Of a stretch of DNA of 57,871 nt, positions 4,046 to 57,871 are shown in pieces. Origin of the DNA: a virus. The notes beneath the pieces are model-generated. The model ran no database searches. It was not told the origin of the DNA and saw nothing but the letters and a program-made list of their open reading frames with translations. The position numbers and the translations under genes are program-made. The stretch lies in IMG/VR virus record IMGVR_UViG_3300009111_000006; one strand, 5' to 3'. The first letter of the stretch is position 1. Every line of letters starts with the position of its first letter.

Positions 4046-4359
4046 TTACCTGGATTGAACTTACGATCTTCTCTCTGGCAACCTGGCGCATATCTTCGTT
4101 GATCGTAAACGAGGAAGGCCCATTCGATATTTTCCTGCGCATCAGGGAATTTATTGGCATACGGCATGACGATAACGGAAAACCGCTCATGGTTCCTGAG
4201 CGGTTTTTTCCTAAGCTTATTTCTTGCGTATGGTGCTCGAGTGTTTGGGTTGGATTTGCGTGGACTGCAACCTATTACTTTTTCCCAGAAACAACCTATC
4301 TTCTTGCTATGCCATTCTTTTTGAGCGCAGTGGCGATTATATTCAGTAAGTATGCCTAA
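4042..4359 (+). CDS. Small membrane protein, DUF1360-like
   Basis: Two or three hydrophobic helices, ATWRISSLI and CVWCSSVWVG motifs. ATGA overlap with the glycosyltransferase gene. Confidence 0.6.
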   Translation: MITWIELTIFSLATWRISSLIVNEEGPFDIFLRIREFIGIRHDDNGKPLMVPERFFPKLISCVWCSSVWVGFAWTATYYFFPETTYLLAMPFFLSAVAIIFSKYA

Positions 4360-6876: not shown

Positions 6877-7172
6877 AAATATCAACGATTACAGGCCCGG
6901 ATGGAAGGAAGTACCAGGCAATCACTGATGACGGTGACGACAAAGCGATTGTCATCGGCCCACCGGAAGGACTTGTGGATGAACTTGGATTACCAGAACC
7001 ATTCGCAACACGCCTGCATAACATCTTGCACGCACGCGGACTGATCAACTATGATGCCGTTCGCGCCAACCCAAAAGCCATCATCGGTACTTTACAGGAA
7101 TTCTTCACGCTGGATTCCCAGCGACTGACAGAAATGTTCTTCAAGATTGAACAGGAGGCTCATCATGAGTGA
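6873..7172 (+). CDS. Hypothetical virion-module protein (99 aa)
   Basis: ATGA overlap with the upstream gene. The start at 6873 was chosen from the coupled start-stop. Confidence 0.55.
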   Translation: MKISTITGPDGRKYQAITDDGDDKAIVIGPPEGLVDELGLPEPFATRLHNILHARGLINYDAVRANPKAIIGTLQEFFTLDSQRLTEMFFKIEQEAHHE

Positions 7173-25658: not shown

Positions 25659-25701
25659 AGTATAGCCAGCGCGTCACATAAAAATAAGTGACGAATGTCA
25701 T
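25659..25701 (-). promoter_or_regulatory. RTGAC-N4-GTCAY box followed 22 nt later by a TATACT -10
   Basis: The box at 25688..25701 overlaps the methyltransferase stop codon. The -10 is at 25659..25664. Confidence 0.5.
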
Positions 25702-27194
25702 GTTTCTACCAGGTCCGCAAACATTGGGAGCGATTTTAGGGCGTTCTTGGGTGTTTTCTTCTGTGCTCTCAGGATTGCCTGCTCTGTGATGTACTCGAAA
25801 GAGATGTCTGTGCCTGCATATCGCAATCCAAGTTCTCGCGCCACCTGCCCGGTTGTGCCTGAGCCGAAGAATGGATCATAGACAATTCCGGGAATAGGTT
25901 CGTGCTCGGGACACTTGCAGGTCTGGCGGTAGCCGATTACTTTTGATGGGAAAGTGGTGTTATCGTGATCGAGTCCAGCTTCTCTCCCTGCCTTGACGCC
26001 CATCTGCAATCTTTTGTGAGAAGATTGCGGGTCTTGATCTTTATGCTTGCCATCATAAGTATCTTTTCTGTCGATGCTTTTCTTTACCACAACCGGTGCC
26101 CATGCTTGTCCGCAGTGTGGGCAGCACCGGGATGGGGTTGTGGCGCGAATGAGCGGAGAAATCAGATCGGGCGGGAATACTGCATAATGAGCACCTTTCC
26201 AGGGTGCCGGTGACGGCGACATGACGGTGCGAGGATTGCGCATTGACCATGATTGCCCTGCTACATCAGATGGCGTTCCCCATGCCTTGAGACGATTTTC
26301 GTGTACACTGTTTGAAAATCCGCCACCCGTAACTTCTTTCGCGCCTTCTTTCGCATCTTCGGCATTGGAGTAATACCCCATGCACTTGGTCAGCATAAAA
26401 ACGTACTCATGCGAACGAGTGTGACGCCATGAGCCTTTGCGCATGACTGGTGCGCCGACTTCGCCGGTGCCGTTGCAAATTTCACAGTTTGGATCCGCCT
26501 GCGGTTCGGCAAAAGAACCATCAGGATCGTGGTCAGTTTGCGGATGGTCGCCGTAGGCTTCTTTCCGATACGCTTCGGAACCACGCTGATCTTGAACGCA
26601 CGCGCAACGCTTGGGTTGAAATCTCCAACCGTTGACGCTTTCGGGCATGGCAGATTTCTTTGCCCATACACAATCGTTGCGAACTACCCAGCCATCGGCC
26701 TGGGCAGCGAGCATAACGCGATGGGGAATGCCGATCAGGTTTCCGGGAACTAAACTTATCATAGATGTGCTTGGTCGCTCGTTTTCGCGATTATCATATC
26801 CGTGATTCTTGATGGATGAGCCGGATTTTATTTCTCGCTGATGACCATTGCCACGATTTTTTCCGCCATAATTTCCCCACGAACCGCTGTACGAATCACC
26901 TACATCCCACCACATTACTCCATCGTCTCGCAGGACGCGCCAGCACTCGCGCATGACAAGCAGGGTATGCCAAACATACATCTCGACGGTTGGTTCTGCG
27001 CCATAGCCACCAAGCCATGCAGAAACATCGACACAGGCGGGGACGCCAGTCATCGGGGAGTAAGTTCCACCAGGCCAGTCGTGTTCCTGTTTCCCGGAAT
27101 AAGCCCGAAGTCCGAAGTAGGGCGGCGACGTAACGATGGTGTGAAATGATTTCTCTGCGAACGGAATGTACAAGGATGTCGAATTTACGATCAT
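25698..27194 (-). CDS. DNA N6-adenine/N4-cytosine methyltransferase (beta-class) with an inserted zinc ribbon
   Basis: SPPYFGLRAY near the N-terminus, DPFFGSGTTG near the C-terminus, CEICNGTGE insert. The ORF is open to 27314; the start at 27194 is preferred on the GGAG RBS. Confidence 0.8.
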   Translation of the reverse strand: MIVNSTSLYIPFAEKSFHTIVTSPPYFGLRAYSGKQEHDWPGGTYSPMTGVPACVDVSAWLGGYGAEPTVEMYVWHTLLVMRECWRVLRDDGVMWWDVGDSYSGSWGNYGGKNRGNGHQREIKSGSSIKNHGYDNRENERPSTSMISLVPGNLIGIPHRVMLAAQADGWVVRNDCVWAKKSAMPESVNGWRFQPKRCACVQDQRGSEAYRKEAYGDHPQTDHDPDGSFAEPQADPNCEICNGTGEVGAPVMRKGSWRHTRSHEYVFMLTKCMGYYSNAEDAKEGAKEVTGGGFSNSVHENRLKAWGTPSDVAGQSWSMRNPRTVMSPSPAPWKGAHYAVFPPDLISPLIRATTPSRCCPHCGQAWAPVVVKKSIDRKDTYDGKHKDQDPQSSHKRLQMGVKAGREAGLDHDNTTFPSKVIGYRQTCKCPEHEPIPGIVYDPFFGSGTTGQVARELGLRYAGTDISFEYITEQAILRAQKKTPKNALKSLPMFADLVET

Positions 27195-27327
27195 ATTTTC
27201 TCCAGTGCCGTCCAGAATGGTCGATTTTGCCAAAAAACAGGGGGTTAGAGCGTTTTTTATGCCATACCCCATGCTCTTTCTACCGGATTTTTGATTTTTC
27301 AAATCCCGGGGCATTCTACGGGCAGTT

Positions 27328-28677
27328 TCAGGCGTTTGTGTCTATAGTCCTAAAAGATGCGTTCTCAAACTTCCCATAGGTTTGCCTGAACAGCAAGTCA
27401 AAACGTCCAGTGGGTCCATGGCGATACTTGGCGAGGTGGCAGTGCTTGATACCCGGATTGCCGCTGTCTGGGTTGATAAACAACACCCAATCTGCATCCT
27501 GTTCGATGTCGCCGGTTTCCTTCAGGTCTTTGAGAACCAGCTCGGAGTCCTGTCCGCGGGTGTCAATATCGCGGGAGACCTGGGCGGCTGTGATCACAGG
27601 CATATCGAGCTGCACGGCGATCTTCGAGATGTAGTTTGATGCAATCGCAACCTGACGCACGCGGCTTTCGGCTTTCGCTTCAAACTTCCCGATGTAATCA
27701 TTGAAAAGCATATCGCACTTGCCCTGTTGCTGCATCTGGGCGATACGGGAGTAGAGCGCGATCGGATTGCGTTCATCGATAATAGTCAATGGCCATGTAG
27801 AAATTTGTCCAATAGCATCATTTACGGCTGTATGTTCGTCGTCTGTCAAGGTACCATCCTGAATCTTCTCGGAGTTGATTTTGGTCAAGGCTGAAATCAG
27901 GCGGATGGTCAGGGCTTTTGCGGTCATCTCCATGGAGTTGAACACAATCGCTGGTCGGTTCAGGCGTGTTTCGATGTGTGTGATGGTGGTCAGCATCCAG
28001 GCGGTTTTTCCCTGACCAGGGCGACCAGCTACGATCCCGGATTGTCCAGTACGAAAGCCTTTCTTGAGCTTGTCGAAATCGATCAGTCCTGTCGAAAAAC
28101 CAGGAACGACACCATTGCGCATGACACCTTCGACATGGTCATAGGTCATGCTGGCGGCATCTCGGGCAGTAATCTCGCTTTTTTGTGAGTGGCTTGCGGC
28201 CACGTTTTGCAGACTGCCAACGCTGTCAGCGATAACTTTGCCGACTTCGGCACTCAGGTCAAAGGCACCCTGCGCAATACTATTGGCTGTTTTTATGAGT
28301 CCGCGGCGAACGCTGTACTCTTTGATCTTAGTAGCATACTGCTTGGCATTCTCGTAGGATGCACCAAGGCTGTCATTCACACAGCCGGTCAGGAAGTTAA
28401 AATCAATTCCATCTGCCATCCATGGGAGCGAATCGCCTGCCTCGTCCAGGATGGTGATGATGTCGGCCTGGACATCCTGTTCACTGAGTTTTGCAATCTT
28501 GTTCCAGATAAACCGGCATCGTTCGATGTAGAAATCTTCGGGGGTGACAATTTCCGAGGCGGCTCGGAACATCACAATCGATTGCAGGGCACAGCCAATC
28601 AGGGCACGTTCAAGCTGAGCGTTGTGCGGGATTGTGTTCAGGGTTGTTTCGGTGTCAAATTCTGGTTCAGGCAGCAT
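27328..28677 (-). CDS. dnaB: Replicative DNA helicase DnaB
   Basis: PHNAQLERALIGCAL N-terminal domain. Walker A GRPGQGKTAW. RecA-like C-terminus. The ORF is open to 28710. Confidence 0.9.
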   Translation of the reverse strand: MLPEPEFDTETTLNTIPHNAQLERALIGCALQSIVMFRAASEIVTPEDFYIERCRFIWNKIAKLSEQDVQADIITILDEAGDSLPWMADGIDFNFLTGCVNDSLGASYENAKQYATKIKEYSVRRGLIKTANSIAQGAFDLSAEVGKVIADSVGSLQNVAASHSQKSEITARDAASMTYDHVEGVMRNGVVPGFSTGLIDFDKLKKGFRTGQSGIVAGRPGQGKTAWMLTTITHIETRLNRPAIVFNSMEMTAKALTIRLISALTKINSEKIQDGTLTDDEHTAVNDAIGQISTWPLTIIDERNPIALYSRIAQMQQQGKCDMLFNDYIGKFEAKAESRVRQVAIASNYISKIAVQLDMPVITAAQVSRDIDTRGQDSELVLKDLKETGDIEQDADWVLFINPDSGNPGIKHCHLAKYRHGPTGRFDLLFRQTYGKFENASFRTIDTNA

Positions 28678-29824
28678 GTTTATTCTCCACTTCCGTGATT
28701 CTTTTTCCAATCCAATAGCCTACTGGAACGGCGATGGCGTTACCGAGTTGACGATAGCGAGCGCTATCTGACTGTCCTGATGTCCATCCAGTCGGAAACC
28801 CCTGTAATTTTTCGCATTCTTCAGGAGTAAGCCTACGAACACCAAAGATATGATCGTTTCGTAGAATGGAAAGTTTTTGATATGCACCATGAGCACTCTT
28901 TCCATCGCCCGTGTGCATAAGCGGTAGAGAAATTCCTTCTCCGTGCGTAAGCCCATCACGATTTGCATCAAAAATAAGCGGCTGGGCAGGATTAGAACGC
29001 AGGCTAATCATATCGGGAGTGCTAATGGAATTGTTTTGCTCGACGATCCCAATCAGGTGCCCGCTCTCGGCGGCTTGCTGTGTTGTCATGGCGTGTCCGT
29101 GCCGCTTTGAGTGCGCAGCAAGAGTTCCGACTATGTAGGTTTCTCTGCTTGGATCATACCTGCCGCTTCTTGAAGAGCTTGCTGTAATTGCGTGGGTAAT
29201 GCTCGTCCCCGGTTTTTTGCTCTCTTGAGTATCCCCTGCGCCGCTTTCGGACTCAAATAAAACTTCTGCGGAACGTCCGTCTCCAGAATGTCCCACAATG
29301 AAGACTCTGCGACGGCGCTGGGGCACTCCGAAAAACTGAGCGTCAAGCACCCGCCAGGAGATTTTATATTTTGGTCCCCATGCGAGGCCTGCGCTTTTCC
29401 AGCCTCCGACAGGGATTTCCGGTACGCATCCGGTAAGGACGCCAATAACGATTGCAAAGTCTTTCCCGTCATTGGACGACAGTAAACCGGGGACATTCTC
29501 TGCAACGAACCAGTCCGGGATAAACTCGTCAATAGTTCTTGCAAATTCGTAGAACAATCCTGATCGCTCTCCAGCAAGACCTTCCCTTTTTCCGGCAATG
29601 GACAAGTCCTGGCAGGGAAATCCGCCGACGAAAACATCGGCATAGGTAATGGTTTCTTTGTTCGCATTGCGAATATCTCCTATGTTTTTCACTTGCGGCC
29701 AGTATCGTTTCAAAACAGAAGATGCCTGGCTGTCCTTTTCGCACTGGAACAAGGGTGTCATTCCAGCGTTTTCAAAAGCCAAATCAAAACCGCCAATTCC
29801 TGAAAAGAAGCTGTTGAATGTCAT
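28667..29824 (-). CDS. DNA (cytosine-5)-methyltransferase
   Basis: FFSGIGGFDLAF (motif I), GGFPCQDLSIAGKREG (IV), ENVPGLLS (VI), QLGNAIAVPV (X). ATGA coupling at 29824. Confidence 0.9.
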   Translation of the reverse strand: MTFNSFFSGIGGFDLAFENAGMTPLFQCEKDSQASSVLKRYWPQVKNIGDIRNANKETITYADVFVGGFPCQDLSIAGKREGLAGERSGLFYEFARTIDEFIPDWFVAENVPGLLSSNDGKDFAIVIGVLTGCVPEIPVGGWKSAGLAWGPKYKISWRVLDAQFFGVPQRRRRVFIVGHSGDGRSAEVLFESESGAGDTQESKKPGTSITHAITASSSRSGRYDPSRETYIVGTLAAHSKRHGHAMTTQQAAESGHLIGIVEQNNSISTPDMISLRSNPAQPLIFDANRDGLTHGEGISLPLMHTGDGKSAHGAYQKLSILRNDHIFGVRRLTPEECEKLQGFPTGWTSGQSDSARYRQLGNAIAVPVGYWIGKRITEVENKHAA

Positions 29825-30132
29825 TTCTCGCATGACAAAATCTCCCCCAGTAGCTTTATCTGGGCATCCATGATGTTCATGATTTTTGAGATCAGCATCC
29901 ATGTTCGTGCAATGTGCTTATGCAGGGCGAGCGGAGTGCTGCTATCAACAACTTCCATGTGCTTGGCAAGTTCTTCCTGCGTGATTTCCAGGCAGGTGAC
30001 ATGAAAGTTGTACAATGCGCGTTCGTGGGTATCTTCCCAGCGAAAGTGGCATTTCTTGCATTCGACGGTGCCATTTGAAACGACAGGCCCGTTGCAATAA
30101 GGACATGGAAGAGCGATGGTTTTAGCCAACAT
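29821..30132 (-). CDS. Zinc-ribbon protein (103 aa)
   Basis: CPYC...CKKC. Confidence 0.5.
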   Translation of the reverse strand: MLAKTIALPCPYCNGPVVSNGTVECKKCHFRWEDTHERALYNFHVTCLEITQEELAKHMEVVDSSTPLALHKHIARTWMLISKIMNIMDAQIKLLGEILSCEK

Positions 30133-43436: not shown

Positions 43437-43955
43437 ATGGAACATCTTGACCAGGTCATCAAGTCGGTTACGCTGATCGCCCAGCCGGAGATTGAAAAAG
43501 CGACATTCCTGCTTACCGAGGTGCGCGATCGCGGGAATAGTGTGTGGATTGTCGGGAATGGCGGGAGTGCTGCGACCGCATCGCATTTTGCAAACGATCT
43601 GTGCAAAATGGGCGGGGTGAAAGCATTTTCATTGCCGGACATGACATCTCTAGTGAGTGCGCACGCGAACGATGATGGGCATGGGGCGATGTTCTCTGAA
43701 CCACTGAAGAGGATGCTGAATACCAACGATGTGCTGGTCGCGATCTCGTGTAGCGGGAATTCCGAAAATGTTGTGAACGCTGCGCAGTTTGCGATGAGCA
43801 TTGGCTGTGTCGTTATTGCGATGACCGGGAACAGGCCAAGTCGGTTATCGTTACTCAAACCGGATGTGCTAATTCAAGCCATGGCGGAACACATCACGGT
43901 GCAGGAAGACATACACATGATCGCCTGCCATGCGATTGCGAGGGGGATAAGATGA
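43437..43955 (+). CDS. gmhA: SIS-domain phosphoheptose isomerase (GmhA-like)
   Basis: VGNGGSAATASHFANDL and ISCSGNSENV. Confidence 0.75.
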   Translation: MEHLDQVIKSVTLIAQPEIEKATFLLTEVRDRGNSVWIVGNGGSAATASHFANDLCKMGGVKAFSLPDMTSLVSAHANDDGHGAMFSEPLKRMLNTNDVLVAISCSGNSENVVNAAQFAMSIGCVVIAMTGNRPSRLSLLKPDVLIQAMAEHITVQEDIHMIACHAIARGIR

Positions 43956-44249: not shown

Positions 44250-44993
44250 ATGCAGTGCCAGGCGTATGTGCGCAACTGCCGTGAATGTGGATACCACGAT
44301 GATCATCGCGCCAATGGAAACTGCCCGCAGTGTTGTGCTGACAGGCGCTGTCGCGAGAACGCAGTGCCGGGATATAAATGGTGCGATCGGCACGGTGGGC
44401 CTGCGCCTGGAAGAAACTTCTACGGATTGGGAAGGCGTATGACAACCGGGTCGGGCAGTTCATTTCCGCTGACAAGGCTGGCATCGAAATATCGCCAGAT
44501 GATCCAGGATGGCCGCATACTTTCGAACCGGCACAGCTTGGAGATTGTACGCCATCGCATCGAGCAGTTGGCAGATCGCATCGATCTGAATGATGCGCCG
44601 GATAGGTTTGCGGTTCTCTCCAAGCTATGGAAGGAATACACAAAGAAGATTGACGAGAAGCAGCCGCTCGAAGCCCATGCCGTTCGCCTGCAAATCGATG
44701 AGCAGTTCGAAGCTGCCTATCACGATTACGCAGCCTGGAAACAGATGTTCGAAGCGCTTGACCTGGACAGGAAGATGGTCGAGAGCGAAGTGAAAGTAGC
44801 CAAGGAAATTCAGGCAATTATGACCGCCGAGGAAGCATACGAGTTTGCGGCCAAGTTGCTGGGAGCGATAATGAATGTTGTTACAGACGCAGGGCAACTC
44901 CGCAGAATCCAATACGAGTTTACGCGACTTATTGGCGAAAAGCCTGAGCAGCGGGCTGGGTCAGGCGGCGGAGAAGTTATCGAAGTCGAATGA
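44250..44993 (+). CDS. Putative small terminase subunit with an N-terminal Cys-rich zinc finger
   Basis: Called only from its position directly upstream of the large terminase. Confidence 0.4.
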   Translation: MQCQAYVRNCRECGYHDDHRANGNCPQCCADRRCRENAVPGYKWCDRHGGPAPGRNFYGLGRRMTTGSGSSFPLTRLASKYRQMIQDGRILSNRHSLEIVRHRIEQLADRIDLNDAPDRFAVLSKLWKEYTKKIDEKQPLEAHAVRLQIDEQFEAAYHDYAAWKQMFEALDLDRKMVESEVKVAKEIQAIMTAEEAYEFAAKLLGAIMNVVTDAGQLRRIQYEFTRLIGEKPEQRAGSGGGEVIEVE

Positions 44994-47439
44994 TCCGGCG
45001 AGCTGGATAGAAGACAACTTCTACATCCCGGAGACCCGCAACGATCCCGATCTGCGCGGGTTGATGCGTTTGCAGGACTACCAGCGGGACGCGATCCGGG
45101 AAGCATTGTCCAAAGATGAAAATGGGCTGTATAAGTACTCGATCATCGTCTGGTCCGACATCAAAAAATCTGCCAAGTCGTCAATCGCCGCAGCGGTTGT
45201 GCAATATGGTCTCGAACATACGGAATGGGGCGAATACTACATCATTGCCAACGATCTCAAGCAGGCTGACTCGCGTGTGGCGCATTACCTGAGAAGGTCG
45301 ATCCAGTTGAACGCGGACAAGTCCACGAAGTATTCCACGCGTGGATACAAGATAACTTCGCAGAACGGCTCTTTCGCCGAAGCGATCCCGATTGATCCAA
45401 GCGGAGAGGCCGGATCGAACGCGGATGGAATTTTCTTCTCCGAATTGTGGGGGGCGAACGAAGAGCAGAAACACATCATGTGGTGTCTCGATCAGGACAG
45501 TGACGTTTTGACCCGGAAGGGCTGGAAAAAAGGCGTAGAACTTACGCGCCTCGATGAAGTAGCTGTCTACAATTATGGAAAGATTGAGTGGGAACATCCG
45601 CGTTCTGTTTTTATCGAGCATTACACTGGCAAGATGCACTTATACGAGCATAAAAACTTTAGTCTGATGTGTACTCCCGATCATCGGCTTTATGGACGAT
45701 ATTCTTATGCTGGAATGAAGTCAGGGCGATATGACACATTCGGAGTGATGCGATCCAACGTTCTGCGAGAAAGTGGATACGGATATTACCATCCGGTTTT
45801 GACTGCCGATCCGGTTGCGGGCGAAATCGACATTCCGAAATATATTTACATCGCAAAAACAAAATTCAAGCCGGAGAAATATATCCCGTGGGACAAGTGG
45901 GCTTCGTTCATGGGGTTATATCTCACCGAGGGCAGCACAGATACTTTCCGTGGGGTTCCTTGCCATGTGAAAATTTCTCAATTGCGGGAACCCCATCCAC
46001 AAAGGTATGACCGAATTCGCGAAATCCTGGAAGATGTTTTTGGCGATTGGCTAAATGTAAACAAACGTGACGGATTTTCAATTGGAAGCACAGAGCTTGC
46101 CAAGATTACAAAAAAGTTTGGAACGACATGGCAGAAACGCATTCCGAGGACGATCATTGAAAGCCCGCCGGATGTACTCGAAAAATTCCTGGAAGGATTT
46201 TGGCTTGGAGATGGAAGCAATCCAATCAAGTCTGGAACGAAAACTTATTGCTGTGCAAGCGAGGGACTCGCAGACGATTTGCAAGAAATCTTATTTAGAC
46301 TTGGATACCGATCGTCGAAACGCCCCCATGAAAAATATTGGAGAGTGAGCCAGATACTTGGATCGTTTGATGTTTCTGTCAGCAAAAAATCCTGGCAGGA
46401 AGTCGATTACTCCGGGAAAGTCTGGTGCCCGGTTGTCTCTACAGGATTGTTTATTGCAAGAAGGGAAGGCAGACCATTCGTGACCGGTAACAGTGAAATG
46501 ACGCTTTCGCCGACAAAATACGGAAAGTCCTTCCGTTGGGTGGAGTCGTATGCCGGGTTCATCGAAGAGTCGAAACTTCTGTACAGCCTGTACGAAACTG
46601 GCGTTAAACGTGGACAGCTTCTCTGGCCGGACAGGTTATATCCTGTAACTGGCGGCGCACCGGCACCGTTGGAACTGTATGTCAACCGGGATGCCCGTAT
46701 GTTGTGCCTGTGGAATACACAACCTCGCTGCCCATGGCAAACACCGGAGTATTACCAGTCAGAATCGCAGGTTTTGCTGCCTAATCAGTTTGCTCGTATG
46801 CACCGCAACCAGTGGGTGGCGAGCGAGGAAGTTTTCGTGCCGGTCGAGTGGTATGACGCTTGTTTCCATGGATCCCAGGATTGGCCAACGTATGACCATA
46901 AAAAGCATCCGATGATTATCGCCCTGGATGCTGGTGTTTCCTCGGATAACTTCGGTCTCTGGATGGGATGCAGGCACCCTGCATCATCGAAGGATGTGCT
47001 GACACAGTATGTCCAGCGCTGGAAGCCGCCGATCGGTGGAAAGATAGACTTCCAGGGCACCGTTGAAAATCCGGGCCCGGAGCGTGTTTTGCGACAACTT
47101 GTAAAAGAGTATAATGTAATAGAAATTGCCTACGATCCGTACCAGCTTCATGACATGGCAACCAGGCTCAAGCAGGAAGGACTTGCGTGGTTTCGACCGT
47201 TTGGTCAGGGCAACGAGCGCTTGCTTGCCGACAGCCAGTATCGGGCACTTATTAGAGATCGCAGGTTTTGGCACCGCGGCGAACCCGAGATGCGCGAGCA
47301 TGTTATGAACGCCAATGCCAGCGTGGATGAAAAGAACGACAATAAATTGCGCATCGTGAAGCGGAACGAAAGTAGCAAAATAGACCTGTGCATCACGGCC
47401 AGCATGGGTTCGTATGAAATCTTACGACTAAACCTGTGA
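44875..47439 (+). CDS. terL: Terminase large subunit interrupted by an intein (518-aa extein)
   Basis: Position before the portal gene. Terminase-like N- and C-terminal regions. The only in-frame ATG is at 44875, which gives a 119-nt overlap with the upstream gene. Confidence 0.75.
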   Translation: MLLQTQGNSAESNTSLRDLLAKSLSSGLGQAAEKLSKSNDPASWIEDNFYIPETRNDPDLRGLMRLQDYQRDAIREALSKDENGLYKYSIIVWSDIKKSAKSSIAAAVVQYGLEHTEWGEYYIIANDLKQADSRVAHYLRRSIQLNADKSTKYSTRGYKITSQNGSFAEAIPIDPSGEAGSNADGIFFSELWGANEEQKHIMWCLDQDSDVLTRKGWKKGVELTRLDEVAVYNYGKIEWEHPRSVFIEHYTGKMHLYEHKNFSLMCTPDHRLYGRYSYAGMKSGRYDTFGVMRSNVLRESGYGYYHPVLTADPVAGEIDIPKYIYIAKTKFKPEKYIPWDKWASFMGLYLTEGSTDTFRGVPCHVKISQLREPHPQRYDRIREILEDVFGDWLNVNKRDGFSIGSTELAKITKKFGTTWQKRIPRTIIESPPDVLEKFLEGFWLGDGSNPIKSGTKTYCCASEGLADDLQEILFRLGYRSSKRPHEKYWRVSQILGSFDVSVSKKSWQEVDYSGKVWCPVVSTGLFIARREGRPFVTGNSEMTLSPTKYGKSFRWVESYAGFIEESKLLYSLYETGVKRGQLLWPDRLYPVTGGAPAPLELYVNRDARMLCLWNTQPRCPWQTPEYYQSESQVLLPNQFARMHRNQWVASEEVFVPVEWYDACFHGSQDWPTYDHKKHPMIIALDAGVSSDNFGLWMGCRHPASSKDVLTQYVQRWKPPIGGKIDFQGTVENPGPERVLRQLVKEYNVIEIAYDPYQLHDMATRLKQEGLAWFRPFGQGNERLLADSQYRALIRDRRFWHRGEPEMREHVMNANASVDEKNDNKLRIVKRNESSKIDLCITASMGSYEILRLNL
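45484..46491 (+). mobile_element. Intein (336 aa) with a LAGLIDADG homing endonuclease
   Basis: Starts at Cys (W|CLDQDSDVLT). Block B TPDH. LYLTEGST and FLEGFWLGDGS. Ends ...FVTGN|S. Confidence 0.8.
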
Positions 47440-52078: not shown

Positions 52079-53596
52079 ATGGGTTCCGCATATCTTGACC
52101 CGACGACCGATCCCAATAATGTCGTAAAGGCATTTATGGATTTGCTCGTCCAGAATGTTCAAAAGTCCACCGGTAATCCGGTTGGGCCTTACGTCCATGG
52201 GCCTGGCGGCTTGTTCGGCGTGCGTGGTCTCAAACGTGAGATTATCTCCACTCACACGCAGTTTACTGGCACGCTCGGGGAAAGCATTCCCATGGGTGCG
52301 ACCGGCGCTGGCCGTGATGGACAGACCAACGAAATTATGCCGTTGTTCCCGTACATTACGGGCTTCCTGCGTTCCGATCAGCAGGAAAAGAACGGCGTCT
52401 GCGATACTCCCGTTGAAGCTGCGCCGTTCAAGACCTGTATCCAGACCACTGTGTTTGGGCGCAAGGAATTCAAGACCCGCGAACTGGAAGTCAACCACGT
52501 TGGACAGGTGATCAACCGTGGCGAGTTCATGGACTTGCAGATCGTCAACGGCCCATTGGTTGAACAGATGGGCGGGCTGATGAGTGGGTTCTTTGGGCTG
52601 CAAAATCAGCAGGGTATCCTGGCTGGTCGCGAGATGCTGATGCGCTTCGTGGAAATTGGCGTGGCGTTCCAGCGATGGTTCTGCCCGACTGTTTACACCG
52701 GAAATCCGGCGAACAACAGTGCTGGCGGCGGCTACAAGGAATTCCCCGGCCTGGACTTGCTGATCAGCAAGACGAAGGTGGATGCCCTGACTGGTCAGGC
52801 GTGCCCATCGCTGTACAGCGACATCAAGGACTTTGGCTATCGCCAGGTTTCCAGCACAACTGACCCGGACATCGTTCGCACGATCACAACCATGATGCGG
52901 ATCCTGATCCGTAAGGCCGAACAGCAAGGCCTCGCCCCGGTCGATATTCGCATTGTAATGCGCGAACCCTTGTTCTATGAGTTGACCCGCGTGTGGCCGT
53001 GCCAGTACAATACCGATGGCTGCGCCGTTGGGCAGTCGCTGACGCAGGAAGTCAACATGAACGATGCCGTGCTTTTCCGTGACCGGATGCGCAATGGCAA
53101 GTACCTGCTTATCGACGGTCGCCAGGTGCCTGTGATCCTGGATGACTGCATCGACGAAGACAACCACAACGACAACGGTGCCATTCCGATCGGCGGATTC
53201 GCCAGCGACATCTACTTCGTGCCGTTCACGGCGCGTGGTGGCACCCTGCGCACCCTGTATTGGGAATACTACGACTACGGCAAAGATGTCCTACCTGCCA
53301 TTCGTGACGGTCGCTTCGGGCAGTTCTTCTGGTCTGACAACGGCGTGTTCCTGTGGGGCATCAAGCCGCCGACCAACTGGTGTATTGATGCGATCGCGAA
53401 GGTCGAGCCGCGCATCATTCTGCGCACCCCGCAGTTGGCTGGTCGTTTGACCAATGTGGTCTATGTGCCGCTTCAGCACACTGATGACCCGCTGCCCAGC
53501 CAGCCGTACTTCGTCAATGGTGGTGTTGTTTCTGGTCGCCCGGCACCCAGCCCATTTAGTGAATGGAATCTGTCTGGACCTGGTTTCAATAACTAA
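52079..53596 (+). CDS. Major capsid protein
   Basis: AGGAGGTGA RBS. 505 aa directly after the protease/scaffold gene, followed by a strong terminator. Confidence 0.7.
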   Translation: MGSAYLDPTTDPNNVVKAFMDLLVQNVQKSTGNPVGPYVHGPGGLFGVRGLKREIISTHTQFTGTLGESIPMGATGAGRDGQTNEIMPLFPYITGFLRSDQQEKNGVCDTPVEAAPFKTCIQTTVFGRKEFKTRELEVNHVGQVINRGEFMDLQIVNGPLVEQMGGLMSGFFGLQNQQGILAGREMLMRFVEIGVAFQRWFCPTVYTGNPANNSAGGGYKEFPGLDLLISKTKVDALTGQACPSLYSDIKDFGYRQVSSTTDPDIVRTITTMMRILIRKAEQQGLAPVDIRIVMREPLFYELTRVWPCQYNTDGCAVGQSLTQEVNMNDAVLFRDRMRNGKYLLIDGRQVPVILDDCIDEDNHNDNGAIPIGGFASDIYFVPFTARGGTLRTLYWEYYDYGKDVLPAIRDGRFGQFFWSDNGVFLWGIKPPTNWCIDAIAKVEPRIILRTPQLAGRLTNVVYVPLQHTDDPLPSQPYFVNGGVVSGRPAPSPFSEWNLSGPGFNN

Positions 53597-53617
53597 CCAA
53601 TCCTATCCGAACAAGGT

Positions 53618-53650
53618 GGGAGTGCGAGAAATCGCACTCCCATTTCTCTT
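53618..53650 (+). terminator. Intrinsic terminator after the capsid gene
   Basis: GGGAGTGCGA-gaaa-TCGCACTCCC-ATTTCTCTT. Confidence 0.75.
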
Positions 53651-53660
53651 GACTTTGGGT

Positions 53661-53750
53661 ATATAATGGATTTCAGAAGAGATAGTGCGTTCTGGCCGGA
53701 CGCATGATAAGCCGCAGCTTCCCCGGTTTCCCTTCTGAAATCCATTATGT
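53661..53750 (+). ncRNA. Long-stem structured element (16 to 19 bp closing helix around a 52-nt core)
   Basis: TAATGGATTTCAGAAG (53664..53679) is perfectly complementary to CTTCTGAAATCCATTA (53732..53747). There is an inner TGCGT/ACGCA stem. Confidence 0.5.
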
Positions 53751-53786
53751 ATCCAAGGGAAGAAATTGAATAAACAGGAGGAAGCA

Positions 53787-54734
53787 ATGCTTGAAGGTAA
53801 GATTCTCATTACGGGTGGTGCAGGCACGCTTGGACGCGCAATTATCAAGCGCTCCACTGAAGATAAATGGCCCTGCCAAATTACAATCTTTTCGACCGAT
53901 GCAATCAAGCACGCTTTTGTGCGCGAGCAGTATCCGCATGTTCAATCGGTCATTGGCGACATCCGCTCTTATGATGCCGTCTACAATGCCATGGCGGGCA
54001 AGGACATCGTCATTCATGGCGCAGCGGTAAAACATATCCCGGTCAGTGAGTACAATTCAATCGATACCTACGAAATCAACGTGGAAGGTTCGCGCAATGT
54101 TTGTATGGCGGCGATCCAGCATCACACTCCCCACGTTCTGGGTATCTCGACTGATAAAGCCTGTCATCCCGCAAATGCCTATGGCGCGACCAAGATGCTG
54201 ATGGAGAAGATTTTCCAGGAATATGCACGCCTGGGTTTCTCTACTCAGTTCCATCTGGTTCGTTATGGCAACGTGCTGGAGAGCACCGGCTCTGTTATTC
54301 AAGTTTGGAAGAAAGCCATCGAGGATCACCAACCGATCAAAATGACCGACCCAGAAATGACTCGTTTCTGGCTTTCTCCAGACCAGGCGGTTACGCTGGT
54401 GCTGAAATCACTTGAATTGCAGAGTGGGCATATCTATGTCGCGAAAATGCCAGCTCTGAGTATAAGAAGACTGGCAGAGTATGGACTTGGGCTTGAAACG
54501 TTGGAGGAGATGTCGGTTGAAATTATTCCGCTTCGACCTGGAGAAAAAACGCACGAGGAACTCTTGACCGTTGAAGAGTGTCCATACGCCACTGAGTACA
54601 GAGATCATTATGACTTACGACCAAGCACAGATGTTCGTTACTTGCCCCACTGCGCTGCACATAAATACTCCAGCGATGAACCTGACCGAGAGCTAAGAAT
54701 GAAAGAATTACAGGAGATGCTTGACAATGGCTAA
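53787..54734 (+). CDS. PseB/CapD-type nucleotide-sugar 4,6-dehydratase
   Basis: ILITGGAGTLG, HGAAVKHIPVSEYN, ISTDKACHPANAYGATKMLMEK, VRYGNVLESTGSVI, MTRFWL. Confidence 0.85.
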   Translation: MLEGKILITGGAGTLGRAIIKRSTEDKWPCQITIFSTDAIKHAFVREQYPHVQSVIGDIRSYDAVYNAMAGKDIVIHGAAVKHIPVSEYNSIDTYEINVEGSRNVCMAAIQHHTPHVLGISTDKACHPANAYGATKMLMEKIFQEYARLGFSTQFHLVRYGNVLESTGSVIQVWKKAIEDHQPIKMTDPEMTRFWLSPDQAVTLVLKSLELQSGHIYVAKMPALSIRRLAEYGLGLETLEEMSVEIIPLRPGEKTHEELLTVEECPYATEYRDHYDLRPSTDVRYLPHCAAHKYSSDEPDRELRMKELQEMLDNG

Positions 54735-54999
54735 ACTATCTGGAACGGCAACGATCAGTGTCAATATATCCTTAGTCTTGCCAGAAGGCGAAGCGAGAGC
54801 GCTTTTAGCCATTGCAACATACGATTCGCAAGAATTCTTGCGCATCTATAAAGAGAAAATGGGAAGTAGACTCGATGGAAGAGAAAAAGACCTTTCATCA
54901 TTATTTGCGAGTATTCGTCTTCTACTTCCTCCAGTTATAAAAAATATCGACGACGCAAGGAGTTCTTTTTCTGGCGAAACGGATAACTGCAATGGATAA
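54727..54999 (+). CDS. Hypothetical protein (90 aa) within the sugar operon
   Basis: ATG overlaps the upstream stop (ATGGCTAA). Confidence 0.45.
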   Translation: MAKLSGTATISVNISLVLPEGEARALLAIATYDSQEFLRIYKEKMGSRLDGREKDLSSLFASIRLLLPPVIKNIDDARSSFSGETDNCNG

Positions 55000-55004
55000 C
55001 TGCA

Positions 55005-55685
55005 ATGGATAACCTGCCTCGTCTCGCGATTGCGATGGTGACATATAGGCGAACCGAAGAAGCACTGCGAACCATCCGAGGCGTATCGGAAAACCTTGTA
55101 TACCCAAAAGAATTGATTGGCTGGTTCGTTGGCGATGATGGCTCTGACAAGGCTCACTCCAATGCCTTGATACAAGAGATTGTGCGCGCGAGCGATGGCA
55201 GGCTGGTCGATTATCACAATGAGCGCTTTACTCCCATGACTGGTAAGGGCTGGAATCGCGTACTCGGGATGGGATACCAATATTCCGATTTTGTCCTGTG
55301 GCTGGAAGATGACTGGGAACTCACAAAGCCATTTTTTATCGAACCATACATTCGTATGCTGATGGATCGCGAAGATGTTGGGCTGGTTCGTCTTGGGCAC
55401 CTGGCAGTTGGTTCTGATGTTCACATTGTCGGTCACAGTGGCGTGCATTACCTGAAATACCAGAAAACAACTCAGTATGCTTACAGCGGCAATCCACAAA
55501 TCCGCCATGCCCGCTACGTGAAATATTACGGCTGGTATGCGGAAAACAAAAATCCAGGCGAAATAGAGCTGGATTACGATGCACGCTTTCGCGCCAGCCC
55601 TGACGGCCCGGAAATATGGCGACCGGCTGACATTCCCGGCTGGGGTGTGTTTGGGCACATTGGAACGGAGAAATCGTATGAATGA
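55005..55685 (+). CDS. GT-A fold glycosyltransferase (GT2-like)
   Basis: LAIAMVTYRRTEEAL...GDDGSD...WLEDDWEL. Confidence 0.65.
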   Translation: MDNLPRLAIAMVTYRRTEEALRTIRGVSENLVYPKELIGWFVGDDGSDKAHSNALIQEIVRASDGRLVDYHNERFTPMTGKGWNRVLGMGYQYSDFVLWLEDDWELTKPFFIEPYIRMLMDREDVGLVRLGHLAVGSDVHIVGHSGVHYLKYQKTTQYAYSGNPQIRHARYVKYYGWYAENKNPGEIELDYDARFRASPDGPEIWRPADIPGWGVFGHIGTEKSYE

Positions 55686-56262
55686 CACCTACGATGGAAT
55701 TTCGGCAGAACAATGGCAAAAAGAACTTAGCGGGCAGAGCGATTGGAACGCACGTCACTTGATGATTGCATTCGCTACGCTTGGACTTCCAAAAACTTTT
55801 CTCGATGTTGGTTGTGGCGATGGAACAATGGTCAACGTAGCCCGACACCTGGGTGTGCTCTCATATGGAGTAGACCAGCTTATCGATGACCAGTGGGACA
55901 AAACGGCTTTCTCGCACCACAACCTCGTTGACCGGTATGTTCACCCATACCAATGCGAACTTGTCCTGTGCCTGGAAGTTGCAGAACATCTTCATCCATC
56001 GGCTCACGCAACCCTTTGCGACACACTTGTCGGGAACTTGAAAGAAGGTCGTGGAAACTACCTTATCTTCTCTGCGGCGCTCCCCAACCAGGGCGGAATC
56101 GGACACGTAGCAGAGAGACCCCCGAAATACTGGATGGATCAGTTTGCGCTGCGAGGATTGAATTTCAGGCGTGACCTGACGATCAATCTTTCGTTACACT
56201 GGTCTAACATTGGCTCTCCGCTTACCTGGTTGGCGGCGAATGTTCAGGTCTGGGAGAAATAA
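55678..56262 (+). CDS. Class I SAM-dependent methyltransferase
   Basis: FLDVGCGDGTMV (motif I), LCLEVAEHL. Its start overlaps the upstream stop. Confidence 0.75.
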   Translation: MNDTYDGISAEQWQKELSGQSDWNARHLMIAFATLGLPKTFLDVGCGDGTMVNVARHLGVLSYGVDQLIDDQWDKTAFSHHNLVDRYVHPYQCELVLCLEVAEHLHPSAHATLCDTLVGNLKEGRGNYLIFSAALPNQGGIGHVAERPPKYWMDQFALRGLNFRRDLTINLSLHWSNIGSPLTWLAANVQVWEK

Positions 56263-56263
56263 C

Positions 56264-57247
56264 ATGATCATAACCAGGACACCTTTGAGAATATCCCTTG
56301 TAGGCGGCGGAACAGATTTTCCTGAGTTTTACAACCGTCATGGCGGCGCAGTTATCTCATTCGCGATCAGTAAGTATGTCTACATTTCGGTAAACGAAAA
56401 GTACGATGGAAAGACGCGAGTATCTTATTCGCATACCGAGACTGTGGAAGATGTGAGGCAGCTTGAACACAGTATCGCCAGGGAAACACTCGCTTTCTTT
56501 GAAGAAAAAGGGCTTGAAATCACATCGGTTGCCGATGTTCCCGGTACCGGCACCGGGCTGGGTTCATCAAGCGCGTATACGGTTGGTCTCATCAAAGCCC
56601 TTTCCGCCCGGAACGGTGAACGCTTTCCGCCAAAGATGTTGGCAGAAACGGCCTATACCGTAGAAGCAAAATTGTGTGGCCATGCGGTTGGAAAGCAAGA
56701 TCAATATGCAGCGGCTTATGGAGGAGTTCACTTCTTTGAATTCAAAAAGGACTACACCAGCGTAGAGCCTATCCCCATGAGCGATGGAAAAATCAAGTAC
56801 ATCGAAGATCGTATGCTCCTGTTCCATGTTGATCTTATTAGAAACGCTGACACCATTCTTTCAATGCAACAGGAACGTCTCGTCAGCGATTGCGATACTA
56901 TCAATGCTGCGAAGAAAATGACAACCATTGCCTATGAGTTGCGCGAAATGCTGCGTGACTATGGCGCAGATGTGTCATTCATAGGCGATGTTCTTCACAG
57001 GAACTGGGTTCAGAAAAAGAAACTCAGCAACGGCATATCGCATAAATACATCGATGATTTGTACATCGCAGGCCGGAATGCAGGCGCAGACGGCGGAAAA
57101 CTTTGCGGTGCCGGTGGTGGTGGCTTCATGCTCTTTTTTGCAGAACCGGACAAGCATGAAGCAATCCGCAGAGCAGTTGGATTGCGCCAGATGACTTTCA
57201 AGATTGAAAAAGAAGGGTGCAAGGTGATCTATGACTCAAAAGCCTAA
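56264..57247 (+). CDS. hddA: GHMP-family sugar kinase, HddA-like (heptose-7-phosphate kinase type)
   Basis: MIITRTPLRISLVGGGTDFPEFY, PGTGTGLGSSSA, KLCGAGGGGF. Confidence 0.75.
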   Translation: MIITRTPLRISLVGGGTDFPEFYNRHGGAVISFAISKYVYISVNEKYDGKTRVSYSHTETVEDVRQLEHSIARETLAFFEEKGLEITSVADVPGTGTGLGSSSAYTVGLIKALSARNGERFPPKMLAETAYTVEAKLCGHAVGKQDQYAAAYGGVHFFEFKKDYTSVEPIPMSDGKIKYIEDRMLLFHVDLIRNADTILSMQQERLVSDCDTINAAKKMTTIAYELREMLRDYGADVSFIGDVLHRNWVQKKKLSNGISHKYIDDLYIAGRNAGADGGKLCGAGGGGFMLFFAEPDKHEAIRRAVGLRQMTFKIEKEGCKVIYDSKA

Positions 57248-57662
57248 AATGCTTTTCTTGGACGATAGAACAAAGAGAATTCACTCAGCAATTAGAAAGT
57301 ATGGAAAAGAATACGATCTGACCATCGTTACAAATGTCAGGGAATTCTTGAGATACGTTGACAGGGAAAAGTATGACATTATCAGCATGGATCATGACTT
57401 GTGCGGGCTTGATTACATGAGCATAAACGATCCGCAATCTGGCATGGAAGCAATTAGATATATACTTGATACACATTCATCTACCATCATTGGAGGTTAT
57501 ATAAAACATGATTGCTTAGTCATAATTCATTCTTCTAACAATATGGCATCGGATGCTATGGTATCGGCATTACAGAGTGCTGGCTTGAACGTAAGGCGAC
57601 AAAGATTTGAGTATGACGGCCCAGAAAACAGCAATTTCTTGAGCAACGGAGTTTCAGAATGA
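57231..57662 (+). CDS. Receiver (CheY-fold)-like protein, resembling phage CPR-type receiver domains
   Basis: MLFLDD, DIISMDHDL and IIHSSN sit at the expected beta1/beta3/beta4 ends. AAGGTGA RBS. Confidence 0.55.
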   Translation: MTQKPKMLFLDDRTKRIHSAIRKYGKEYDLTIVTNVREFLRYVDREKYDIISMDHDLCGLDYMSINDPQSGMEAIRYILDTHSSTIIGGYIKHDCLVIIHSSNNMASDAMVSALQSAGLNVRRQRFEYDGPENSNFLSNGVSE

Positions 57663-57871
57663 GAACCGGACTTATTGCAGGCTCATTTGACATCATTCAC
57701 CCTGGCTACATCCGCTTATTTCAGGATGCAAAGCGCCATTGCGACTTCCTTATCGTCGCGTTGCACGTCGATCCAAGCGTAGAGCGAACAGGAAAAGAGA
57801 AACCTATTTTTTCTGTGGATGAGAGAAAGGAAATTCTTTCAGCGATCAAGTATATCGACCAGGTCGTGACC
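57659..57871 (+). CDS. Cytidylyltransferase-fold nucleotidyltransferase, N-terminal part (continues at 124..315 after the repeat)
   Basis: ATGA overlap with the upstream gene. MRTGLIAGSFDIIHPGYIRLF. Confidence 0.75.
   Translation, partial: MRTGLIAGSFDIIHPGYIRLFQDAKRHCDFLIVALHVDPSVERTGKEKPIFSVDERKEILSAIKYIDQVVT
57749..57871. repeat. Terminal direct repeat, copy 2
   Basis: Identical to 1..123. Confidence 0.95.

Follow-up and report, generated by a model that had tools for sequence, protein, structure and literature searches.

A candidate glycan-building gene cassette with heptose and HexNAc streams in the head-tail module of an uncultured siphovirus-like phage family

The IMG/VR virus record IMGVR_UViG_3300009111_000006 is a stretch of phage DNA of 57,871 nucleotides, referred to here as the window. 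Its late plus-strand module carries a block of ten tightly packed genes, running from an ATG at position 53787 across the junction of the circular map to a stop at 4359 (about 8 kb), which may encode the synthesis and assembly of a glycan from heptose and N-acetylhexosamine (HexNAc) precursors. The window is a circularly permuted phage genome, the two ends of which share an exact 123-bp direct repeat (1-123 = 57749-57871). This terminal repeat is an assembly overlap of a circular or terminally redundant genome, the real length of which, once the repeat is removed, is 57,748 bp. Naive joining of the ends would double 41 codons within one gene of the block, that of the nucleotidyltransferase (NTase). 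The circular junction is crossed by three independently assembled contigs (ENA, JGI, and Logan) with identical gene content and order. The genes of the block and the features considered with it are listed below; SDR denotes short-chain dehydrogenase/reductase, GT glycosyltransferase, and ORF open reading frame.

43437-43955, plus strand: GmhA-like sedoheptulose-7-phosphate isomerase (SIS fold), the first recognisable gene of the late plus-strand module, upstream of the terminase
52079-53596, plus strand: 505-aa protein in the major-capsid position, hypothesised glycan acceptor
53614-53645, plus strand: GC-rich hairpin with a U-rich tail, resembling an intrinsic terminator after the capsid gene
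53653-53758, plus strand: long branched hairpin between the terminator-like hairpin and SDR1
53787-54734, plus strand: SDR1, PseB/FnlA/CapE-type (Polysacc_synt_2) candidate nucleotide-HexNAc 4,6-dehydratase
54727-54999, plus strand: 90-aa ORF with no detectable relatives
55005-55685, plus strand: GT226, a GT-A (GT2-like) glycosyltransferase of 226 aa, core cassette member
55678-56262, plus strand: S-adenosylmethionine-dependent methyltransferase (Methyltransf_23), variable member
56264-57247, plus strand: GHMP kinase of the HddA/WcbL subfamily (D-glycero-D-manno-heptose-7-phosphate 1-kinase), core member
57231-57662, plus strand: cREC, a stand-alone receiver-fold protein of 143 aa, core member
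57659-57871 (N-terminal part), then 124-315 (C-terminal part), plus strand: NTase, cytidylyltransferase fold, 134 aa
312-1232, plus strand: SDR2, a GalE-like extended SDR
1229-4045, plus strand: GT4+GT2+GT2 fusion of 938 aa, core member
4042-4359, plus strand: DUF1360 small membrane protein, cassette membership uncertain

A first-pass annotation, made by reading the DNA without database searches, had drawn attention to this block. It counted eleven genes where we count ten, which is also the number in its own list. Its remark that most genes are joined by overlapping stop and start codons is borne out: seven of the nine junctions overlap, four as ATGA and three by 8, 8, and 17 nt, and the other two are gaps of +1 and +5 nt. 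Every one of its domain calls was reproduced with Pfam or NCBIfam. The placement that it gave between head and tail genes is also correct. The block lies in the late, structural plus-strand module; it is preceded by the genes for TerL, a portal-position protein of 499 aa, a DUF6582 protein of 589 aa, and the 505-aa capsid-position protein, and followed by those for tape-measure, Dit-like, and Sipho_Gp37-like proteins. At 48.9% GC, the block is close to the genome (49.6%), and there is therefore no sign of recent acquisition.

The same arrangement is found in a large group of relatives. A metagenome scan with an alignment of cREC returned 64 loci, and more loci were reached independently via GmhA or the capsid-position protein. 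The genes present keep a single order in all loci: capsid, SDR1, GT226, (methyltransferase), kinase, cREC, (NTase), SDR2, GT fusion, DUF1360, a 413-aa gene, and a tail gene, brackets marking the variable members. In every locus that is long enough, the cassette lies after the capsid-position gene and, where the locus reaches that far, before the 413-aa and tail genes. The NTase is not a constant member: about half of the related lineages have a cassette without it. Accessory genes varying by lineage include a DegT aminotransferase, a GT10-like GT, extra GT2s, alternative methyltransferase-like proteins, an Acb2/Tad1-like protein, and several unassigned families. The closest relative, L006, has cassette proteins 75-92% identical to those of the window.

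Searches of GenBank phages with the DNA and with the capsid protein found nothing, and an IMG/VR scan with the kinase found no relative. Two whole-phage contigs carry a taxonomic label. L084 (contig JASJYH010000067.1, from an Anaerolineae metagenome-assembled genome, MAG) is the only match among 185,579 species-representative genomes, and P0190, the only capsid homologue with an NCBI name ('Chloroflexi bacterium' MAG), lies on a contig binned in a Chloroflexota MAG. There is thus a weak hint of a host in the Chloroflexota, which are generally reported to lack lipopolysaccharide (LPS). The Acb2/Tad1-like accessory protein is a hairpin-domain protein of 103 aa (L029, 1407-1718; also L031, L032, L033, L037, and L039), encoded within the cassette between cREC and the GT fusion, and belongs to an anti-CBASS/Thoeris sponge family.

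Two enzymes, the kinase and the isomerase, point to heptose. The top four PDB matches of the kinase are all heptose kinases (WcbL 4usm at 1.5e-38 and 4usk, Bacteroides 3k85 at 8e-38, and Campylobacter HddA 4n3o at 7.5e-37), and the next family, fucokinase, follows at 8e-14. Its best NCBIfam model is HddA (154 bits, equivalog cut-off 600), and it matches phrog_34407 at 203 bits. The isolated ORF at 43437-43955, which the first-pass annotation had read as a GmhA-like isomerase, was confirmed as such by NCBIfam models (PRK13936, phosphoheptose isomerase, 83 bits; gmhA, 77 bits; both under their equivalog cut-offs, 209 for gmhA) and by PDB matches, the best of which are all GmhA (for example, 1x92 at 1.5e-18), a match at the family level only. 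Five diverged relatives (L078-L081 and L084) keep this gene, about 46% identical, in its position at the head of the late operon and upstream of the terminase.

Elsewhere, homologues of the kinase have a GmhA gene within about 4 kb in cyanophage SynMITS9220M01, Caulobacter phage Cr30, and three gut contigs, and in the two phages and one gut contig the two genes are direct neighbours. The gut contigs (L011-L013; GenBank MT835644, MT835828, and MT836453, 'UNVERIFIED Bacteriophage sp.', human faeces) are the best matches of the kinase in the GenBank phage collection; queried phage structural genes were not found in them, and they are possibly not phage at all but capsule loci of bacteria. The proposal that isomerase, kinase, and NTase follow the logic of nucleoside diphosphate (NDP)-heptose synthesis is supported, the kinase matching heptose kinases at about 1e-37 to 1e-38 and GmhA matching solved isomerases at about 1e-18. 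Profile and structure searches place the kinase with HddA/WcbL and the NTase in the RfaE-II/TagD superfamily, but the sequence does not settle the substrate of the latter.

The canonical heptose pathway requires the HAD phosphatase GmhB between the kinase and the NTase (PMC7685785). A Pfam scan of about 50 window ORFs found no HAD/GmhB phosphatase domain, and the gene that lies between kinase and NTase encodes cREC. This protein matches Pfam PF20274, cREC_REC (9.8e-14; 52.2 bits, cut-off 27), a family of divergent receivers defined by the Aravind laboratory and predicted to be phosphoesterases (Iyer, Aravind et al. 2021, PMC7824862). The AlphaFold 2 (AF2) model of the window protein has a predicted local distance difference test score (pLDDT) of 85 and leads Foldseek to the CheY-like fold; phmmer against PDB sequences gave marginal matches only, and the fold is taken from the model and Foldseek. 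The invariant residues are DD11-12, D54-x-D56, and H100-S101-x-N103. In the wider family, x-Asp invariably comes after the phospho-acceptor Asp, giving LDxDL, a motif that mimics motif I of the HAD enzymes; the DD metal pair and the H/S-x-N motif are kept as well.

The gene neighbourhood ties cREC to both of its partners. For 26 cREC lineages, 1.1 kb or more of the sequence ahead of the gene is available; in 21 of these the kinase lies upstream on the same strand, and in 13 of the 21 it is within 100 bp. It is there in every locus with at least 3 kb of upstream sequence, and cREC remains beside the kinase even in lineages without the NTase. In-frame fusions of cREC to the NTase were revealed when a first NTase hidden Markov model proved to be contaminated by cREC, the stop-to-stop ORFs used having covered both domains. 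They occur in five metagenomic loci:

L069, 313-1062: cREC~NTase fusion
L071, 280-1014: cREC~NTase fusion
L072, 10001-10855: cREC~NTase fusion
L073, 332-1135: cREC~NTase fusion
L076, 3-728: cREC~NTase fusion

A search of 1.84 billion proteins found such fusions in at least eight separate 50%-identity cluster representatives (P0270, P0274, P0276-P0278, P0293, P0294, and P0306). P0293 and the C terminus of the L072 fusion have Cys-rich extensions that look like zinc ribbons, and stand-alone cREC homologues P0004, P0005, P0007, P0013, and P0016 carry a similar C-terminal CxxC...CHxC extension. The cyanophage SynMITS9220M01 provides an instructive parallel: its genes run kinase, GmhA, [HAD~NTase], SDR, and in gp206 the N-terminal half is a HAD phosphatase with a DLDGT motif, whereas the C-terminal half is the closest phage homologue of the window NTase (49.6% identity). 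BLASTP found no similarity between cREC and the N terminus of this protein, and the two domains at the phosphatase position are analogous, not homologous. Because no HAD domain was found in the window, and because of the synteny with the kinase, the cREC~NTase fusions, the HAD~NTase protein at the equivalent position in the cyanophage, and the LDxDL motif, cREC is a candidate heptose-1,7-bisphosphate phosphatase replacing GmhB. The inclusion of the 143-aa protein in the pathway by the first-pass annotation is strongly reinforced by the fusions and the kinase synteny.

Receiver folds are, of course, those of signalling domains, and receiver domains are commonly fused to enzymatic output domains. 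cREC might then be a phospho-regulated switch on the adjacent or fused NTase, with the 7-phosphate removed by a host GmhB, which many hosts encode, or by another phosphatase. We consider this rather unlikely. No histidine kinase was seen among the roughly 50 phage ORFs scanned; the Asp at D+2, giving the HAD-like DxD, is conserved, and H/S/N residues replace the canonical receiver set. A bona fide HAD phosphatase holds the same fused position in the cyanophage homologue, and cREC adjoins the kinase also where there is no NTase to be switched. The phosphatase assignment does depart from what has been described for PF20274. The window protein passes the model cut-off (52 versus 27 bits) and is a stand-alone receiver with the conserved acidic residues. 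The contexts from which the family was described are NAD/ADP-ribose and RNA repair, however, and the substrates proposed for it are cyclic phosphates (PMC7824862). The partners of cREC in the window, a sugar kinase and a sugar-phosphate NTase, suggest a sugar bisphosphate instead.

The NTase is the least constrained member of the proposed pathway. It belongs to PF01467 (3.2e-16), its top NCBIfam model being rfaE_dom_II (75 bits, cut-off 181.5), ahead of TagD (64 bits), and it matches phrog_7878 at 116 bits. Ethanolamine-phosphate cytidylyltransferase (ECT) ranks first among its PDB matches and TagD (glycerol-3-phosphate) second, with HldC 5x9q behind at 1.2e-9. This cytidylyltransferase-like protein is the only NTase met in the cassette, an HddC-type PF00483 enzyme not being encountered. 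Where the NTase is missing, inspection of the extra genes of the cassette gave no recognisable replacement; such phages need a host or unrecognised enzyme, or else the NTase acts on another substrate. The latter thought leads to the proposal that the NTase activates a non-sugar phosphate, giving CDP-glycerol, CDP-ribitol, or CDP-ethanolamine for phosphodiester decoration, while a host enzyme activates heptose-1-phosphate. The closeness of the TagD score to that of RfaE-II, the order of the PDB matches, and the dispensability of the NTase in about half of the lineages, which retain GmhA, kinase, and cREC, all fit it. We nevertheless think it improbable, because the closest phage homologue is joined to a phosphatase in a gene flanked by GmhA and an SDR annotated HldD, because the cREC~NTase fusions link the NTase with the kinase and phosphatase steps, because the phrog_7878 annotation is heptose-related, and because no glycerol-phosphate transferase or ribitol-phosphate dehydrogenase was seen.

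The two SDRs suggest that heptose is only one of the sugars involved. SDR1 matches PF02719 (7.5e-72, 242 bits), and its NCBIfam scores for PseB (237 bits, cut-off 408) and FnlA (181 bits) are both below the equivalog cut-offs, for which reason no exact product is assigned to it. Its closest PDB matches are the UDP-GlcNAc 4,6-dehydratases PseB/FlaA1, FnlA, and CapE (1e-56 to 1e-47; 2gn4, FlaA1/PseB, at 1.6e-56), and it carries the STDKA...YGATK-type catalytic motif of this group, read from the sequence as ISTDKACHPANAYGATK. Some relatives have a DegT aminotransferase within the cassette. Because enzymes of the SDR1 type act on UDP-GlcNAc, and because of this aminotransferase, SDR1 is more likely to open a 6-deoxy(amino)-HexNAc stream of its own than to tailor heptose, the role that the first-pass annotation had given to the dehydratase. 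The likeness to PseB also raised the pathway to pseudaminic (nonulosonic) acid, which was rejected: neither a NeuB/PseI synthase nor a CMP-transferase of the matching type is present.

SDR2 matches PF01370 at 3.4e-56 and PDB entry 4zrm at 7.9e-56, with NCBIfam scores of 155 bits for GalE and 106 bits for heptose_epim. It has an SSTSAVY...YGISK motif without the dehydratase D/E pair and is therefore predicted to be an epimerase or 4-reductase. With the SDR annotated HldD that lies at the same relative position after the cyanophage HAD~NTase gene, SDR2 shares 32% identity, yet its GalE score is the higher, and it could serve either the heptose or the HexNAc branch.

Assembly of the activated sugars would fall to four GT domains. 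GT226 (PF00535, 28 bits, cut-off 23.3) follows SDR1 in all long related loci and has no match at all among GenBank phages by tblastn. The GT fusion consists of a Pfam GT1/GT4 stretch and two GT2 stretches, followed by a C-terminal region of about 130 aa without assignment; it is 56-67% identical in relatives and 89% in L006, and tblastn found no full-length equivalent in GenBank phages. The methyltransferase (PF13489, 29.4 bits, cut-off 27) varies in its presence among relatives. A scan for transmembrane segments found none in any cassette enzyme, the GT fusion included. The DUF1360 protein (PF07098, 1.1e-9) is joined to the end of the GT fusion by an ATGA overlap, and in relatives with other genes inserted behind the fusion, such as L061, L072, and L076, it still precedes the 413-aa gene. 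The 90-aa ORF, by contrast, has no detectable homologues; it is lineage-specific, lying on an insertion of roughly 270 bp that is missing from L006 and all other lineages, and may not be a functional gene.

From the observed gene content, families, synteny, fusions, and conservation, we infer the following series of enzymatic steps, including the role of cREC, the nucleotide, and the acceptor. In the heptose stream, GmhA would turn sedoheptulose-7-phosphate from the host into D-glycero-D-manno-heptose-7-phosphate, to which the HddA/WcbL-like GHMP kinase would attach the anomeric phosphate. cREC would then strip the 7-phosphate in GmhB's place, via an aspartyl-phosphate and a HAD-like DxD mechanism, and the small NTase would form the NDP-heptose. 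In the HexNAc stream, SDR1 would turn host UDP-GlcNAc into a 4-keto-6-deoxy-HexNAc, and SDR2 would epimerise or reduce either a sugar of this stream or the heptose. The four soluble GT domains and the O-methyltransferase would make a methylated oligosaccharide, the most likely acceptor of which would be the phage's own capsid and/or tail proteins, as in mycobacteriophages Corndog, Che8, and Myrna. In sum, we envisage a late-expressed glycan-building cassette with heptose and HexNAc streams, fixed in a large environmental family of siphovirus-like phages and with virion proteins as the likeliest acceptor, a proposal on which our own judgement is evenly balanced.

The acceptor calls for separate consideration. 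Virion proteins are the best-supported candidate, though unproven, because the cassette is fixed in the head-tail module, because no export or lipid-carrier machinery is seen among its identified gene families and all its enzymes are soluble, because variable accessory genes stand beside a nearly invariant capsid, and because of the parallel with Corndog. The content of accessory GTs, methyltransferases, and aminotransferases varies, while the capsid-position protein stays 66-97% identical among the top 120 of its homologues, of which there are at least 1,512 in public metagenomes. This 505-aa protein has no Pfam or PHROG match, and a profile search against PDB sequences was empty. AF2 modelled it poorly (pLDDT 46), yet nearly all entries of the Foldseek PDB list are HK97-fold capsid or encapsulin chains, every one at a weak score; a BFVD search gave one strong but unnamed match. 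Its C-terminal tail is strongly conserved (LQHTDDPLPSQ.Y.VNGGV.TG.P.PSPFSEWN..GPG). An N-x-S/T sequon in this tail was considered as a glycosylation site and dropped, being kept in only 44 of 107 homologues.

The alternative acceptor lies in the host. An auxiliary metabolic gene set could place the activated sugars onto LPS, capsule, S-layer, or wall glycan late in infection, remodelling the envelope in a way that could block superinfection or keep progeny from sticking to debris. The heptose genes of cyanophages and Cr30 are conventionally read as LPS-related and host-derived (PMC7378029), and the PHROG class of the matching GT families is "moron/AMG/host takeover". The GTs of LPS and capsule assembly are soluble too, and a conserved membrane protein, DUF1360, closes the block. 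Against these points stands the content of the variant cassettes, where the gene families identified include no flippase, polymerase, ligase, ABC exporter, or initiating phosphoglycosyltransferase, that is, nothing for the export, flipping, polymerisation, ligation, or priming of an envelope glycan. The cassette is also locked within the head-tail module rather than in a moron position, with a GC content equal to that of the genome, and if the hint of a Chloroflexota host holds, there would be no heptose-containing LPS core to extend. We regard envelope remodelling as unlikely on balance, if deserving of attention.

A third possible acceptor is the phage DNA. DNA hypermodification is a known use of GTs and nucleotide-sugar genes in phages (Pyle et al. 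2024, as cited in PMC12619734), and the cassette might provide glycosylated bases as an anti-restriction device. The window gives this very little encouragement. Among the roughly 50 ORFs scanned, there is no dCMP/dUMP hydroxymethylase, thymidylate-synthase homologue, or base J-like enzyme, the one weak thymidylate-synthase PHROG match (E 5e-6, TerL residues 198-297) falling at the start of a putative TerL intein. The phage encodes C5 and N6/N4 DNA methyltransferases instead, and the cassette lies in the head-tail module and not in the replication module. DNA glycosylation is, in our estimation, hardly credible.

Comparison with known systems brings out what is shared and what differs. The GDP-D-glycero-alpha-D-manno-heptose pathway (GmhA, HddA, GmhB, and HddC), found in loci for S-layers, capsules, and O-antigens (Kneidinger 2001; PMC7685785), has in common with the window a GmhA homologue for sedoheptulose-7-phosphate, an HddA/WcbL-type GHMP kinase, and the order of steps from kinase to phosphatase to NTase. 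However, the window has a receiver-fold protein where the pathway has the HAD-type GmhB, its NTase is PF01467 and HddC is PF00483, its GmhA lies 10 kb from the other genes, and it has no GMD-type heptose dehydratase (DmhA/WcbK). The ADP-L-glycero-beta-D-manno-heptose pathway (GmhA, HldE or HldA+HldC, GmhB, and HldD) shares the NTase superfamily of HldE domain II/HldC and an SDR after the NTase, like HldD. It differs in its pfkB-type kinase (HldE domain I/HldA), that of the window being GHMP-type (alpha-anomer type in known cases), and in that SDR2 scores higher for GalE than for HldD; here, too, the window lacks the HAD phosphatase.

Closer in biological setting are the T4-like cyanophages (SynMITS9220M01, Bellamy, and S-CAM1) and Caulobacter phage Cr30, which carry GmhA, an HddA-like kinase, a cytidylyltransferase-fold NTase, an SDR, and GTs; the cyanophage NTase is 50% identical to that of the window and physically joined to a phosphatase domain. 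In contrast, these are large myoviruses with the genes in accessory regions, not in the head-tail module, and their phosphatase is HAD, not cREC. Their heptose genes are annotated as LPS-related genes derived from the host (PMC7378029), and these clusters appear to be known from annotation.

The mycobacteriophages (Che8, Corndog, and Myrna; Freeman et al. 2023) have GT and methyltransferase genes in the structural operon beside the major head gene, as in the window, and a glycan coat on capsid and tail subunits would be expected in both. Corndog virions have been reported to be glycosylated (PMC12363180, PMC12619734, and PMC11256854), and in the gp35-41 region of this phage the major head gene is immediately preceded by gp35-38, which are one methyltransferase gene and three GT genes. 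The mycobacteriophages rely on host nucleotide sugars, whereas the cassette of the window would add a de novo heptose route and a HexNAc dehydratase; furthermore, glycosylation has been shown for them and is a prediction for the window. In tblastn searches, there was no mycobacteriophage match for GT226 and none among the matches listed for the GT fusion. Given the lack of similarity to the Corndog proteins noted below, the analogy is one of arrangement only. In view of Corndog and of the heptose clusters of SynMITS9220M01 and Cr30 (PMC7378029), the statement of the first-pass annotation that the block matches no described system was too strong. Chloroviruses and mimiviruses also possess their own nucleotide-sugar enzymes and GTs, used on their own capsid or fibrils, but these are giant viruses of eukaryotes with unrelated enzymes and sugars.

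A number of considerations weigh against our proposal. The enzymatic steps and the virion glycan are predictions from sequence, all NCBIfam equivalog cut-offs are missed (HddA 154/600, gmhA 77/209, and rfaE_II 75/181), and the GmhA-like ORF has an Asp at the aligned position of the catalytic Glu. cREC could be regulatory instead of catalytic. The NTase is as close to glycerol-3-phosphate and ethanolamine-phosphate cytidylyltransferases as to heptose enzymes, so that its sequence does not fix the substrate, and it is absent from about half of the related lineages, which keep GmhA, kinase, and cREC. Known HddA-type (alpha-anomer) pathways use a PF00483 NTase, of another fold than that of the window, and we know of no characterised precedent for a GHMP (alpha-type) kinase working with an HldC-fold NTase. 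The 505-aa protein is read as a capsid from its gene position and weak fold evidence. GT226 and the methyltransferase showed no similarity by BLASTP to gp35, gp37, or gp38 of Corndog (E >= 0.058), gp36 and Che8 gp110 not being compared directly. Finally, soluble GTs without transmembrane segments are also usual in LPS and capsule assembly, and the block ends in a conserved small membrane protein.

Annotated phage-borne heptose genes are already known (cyanophages and Cr30; PMC7378029), as are GT genes beside capsid genes (mycobacteriophages). What is new is their combination in the structural operon, universal in a very large uncultured family, together with the second, HexNAc stream, the triple-GT fusion, and the replacement of GmhB by cREC with recurrent gene fusion as support. 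Literature searches on phage heptose virion glycans, and on HddA/GmhB in phages, found nothing relevant. If our proposal is correct, virion glycosylation would be no oddity of mycobacteriophages but an ancient trait, fixed throughout a very large family of environmental phages with at least 1,500 capsid homologues and the cassette in every long locus examined. It would also mean that phages supply their own activated sugars, as is otherwise known mainly from giant viruses of eukaryotes. cREC, so far a computational prediction, would gain a concrete biochemical role, and NDP-heptose synthesis a non-orthologous replacement of GmhB. O-antigen-like variation beside a nearly invariant capsid would suggest selection on the particle surface, for instance to escape adsorption sinks, grazers, enzymes, or host defences, and such a variable surface might be of use in phage engineering. 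ADP-heptose and heptose-1,7-bisphosphate are innate-immune agonists in animals, and heptose nucleotides made by phages would therefore be of interest in themselves.

A bolder form of the proposal can be stated, which we find doubtful as a whole. In it, cREC would be a new class of sugar-bisphosphate phosphatase that has converged on the HAD DxD and, paired or fused with the NTase, would complete a non-canonical hybrid NDP-heptose pathway in abundant uncultured phages (possibly of LPS-less Chloroflexota hosts) that draw their heptose from central metabolism and coat their capsids and tails with a diversifying methylated heptose/6-deoxy-HexNAc glycan.

The region between the capsid-position gene and SDR1 contains the two hairpins listed above, which give a fold z-score of -8.3. 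The first-pass annotation had described a capsid gene, a terminator, and a long hairpin ahead of the block. Both hairpins were confirmed, but a simple terminator scan did not call the one at 53614-53645, and the identity of the capsid is weakly supported; a hairpin and T-run equivalent to 53614-53645 are found in nine relatives. A scan of the intergenic region for sigma-70 promoters found nothing. The long hairpin was compared with its counterparts in L007, L009, L016, L027, L031, L033, L061, L066, and L079, and RNAalifold on the ten lineages gave 27 pairs, 17 with compensatory changes on both sides. At the 5' base, ATAAT(G)G is invariant or nearly so, and in L079 the sequence reads TTGACT-17-CATAAT. 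Most have a conserved GCTTCCC near the apex, a motif with complementarity to two sites, GGGAAGC immediately 3' of the hairpin and the SDR1 Shine-Dalgarno, GGAGGAAGC. Rfam returned no family, only spurious miRNA matches. The hairpin could be an RNase III processing site, a leader masking the ribosome-binding site, or a promoter-bearing element.

Several further features of the genome may be recorded. Immediately after the cassette, the late plus-strand module is broken by a minus-strand gene of 203 aa at 4399-5010 (phrog_4657, unknown function, 191 bits) and a small adjacent ORF; relatives carry other small minus-strand genes at this place. Between the 413-aa gene and tail chaperone-like ORFs, positions 7147-8664 encode a 505-aa protein with weak matches to BNR/Ycf48-like beta-propeller repeats, which is 63-91% identical among relatives and may be an unusually large tail-tube or decoration protein. 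Two DNA methyltransferases, of N6/N4 and C5 type, are encoded on the minus strand at 25698-27314 and 28667-29902, in the replication module and adjoining the DnaB helicase, and in relatives L080 and L081 methyltransferases lie immediately upstream of GmhA. TerL (44875-47439, 854 aa) appears to bear an intein: relatives L078 and L079 have a TerL of 451-453 aa that lacks residues from about 205 to 539, the insertion has a faint LAGLIDADG_3 match in a precomputed Pfam record, and the TerL of L080, with its intein, is 818 aa long.

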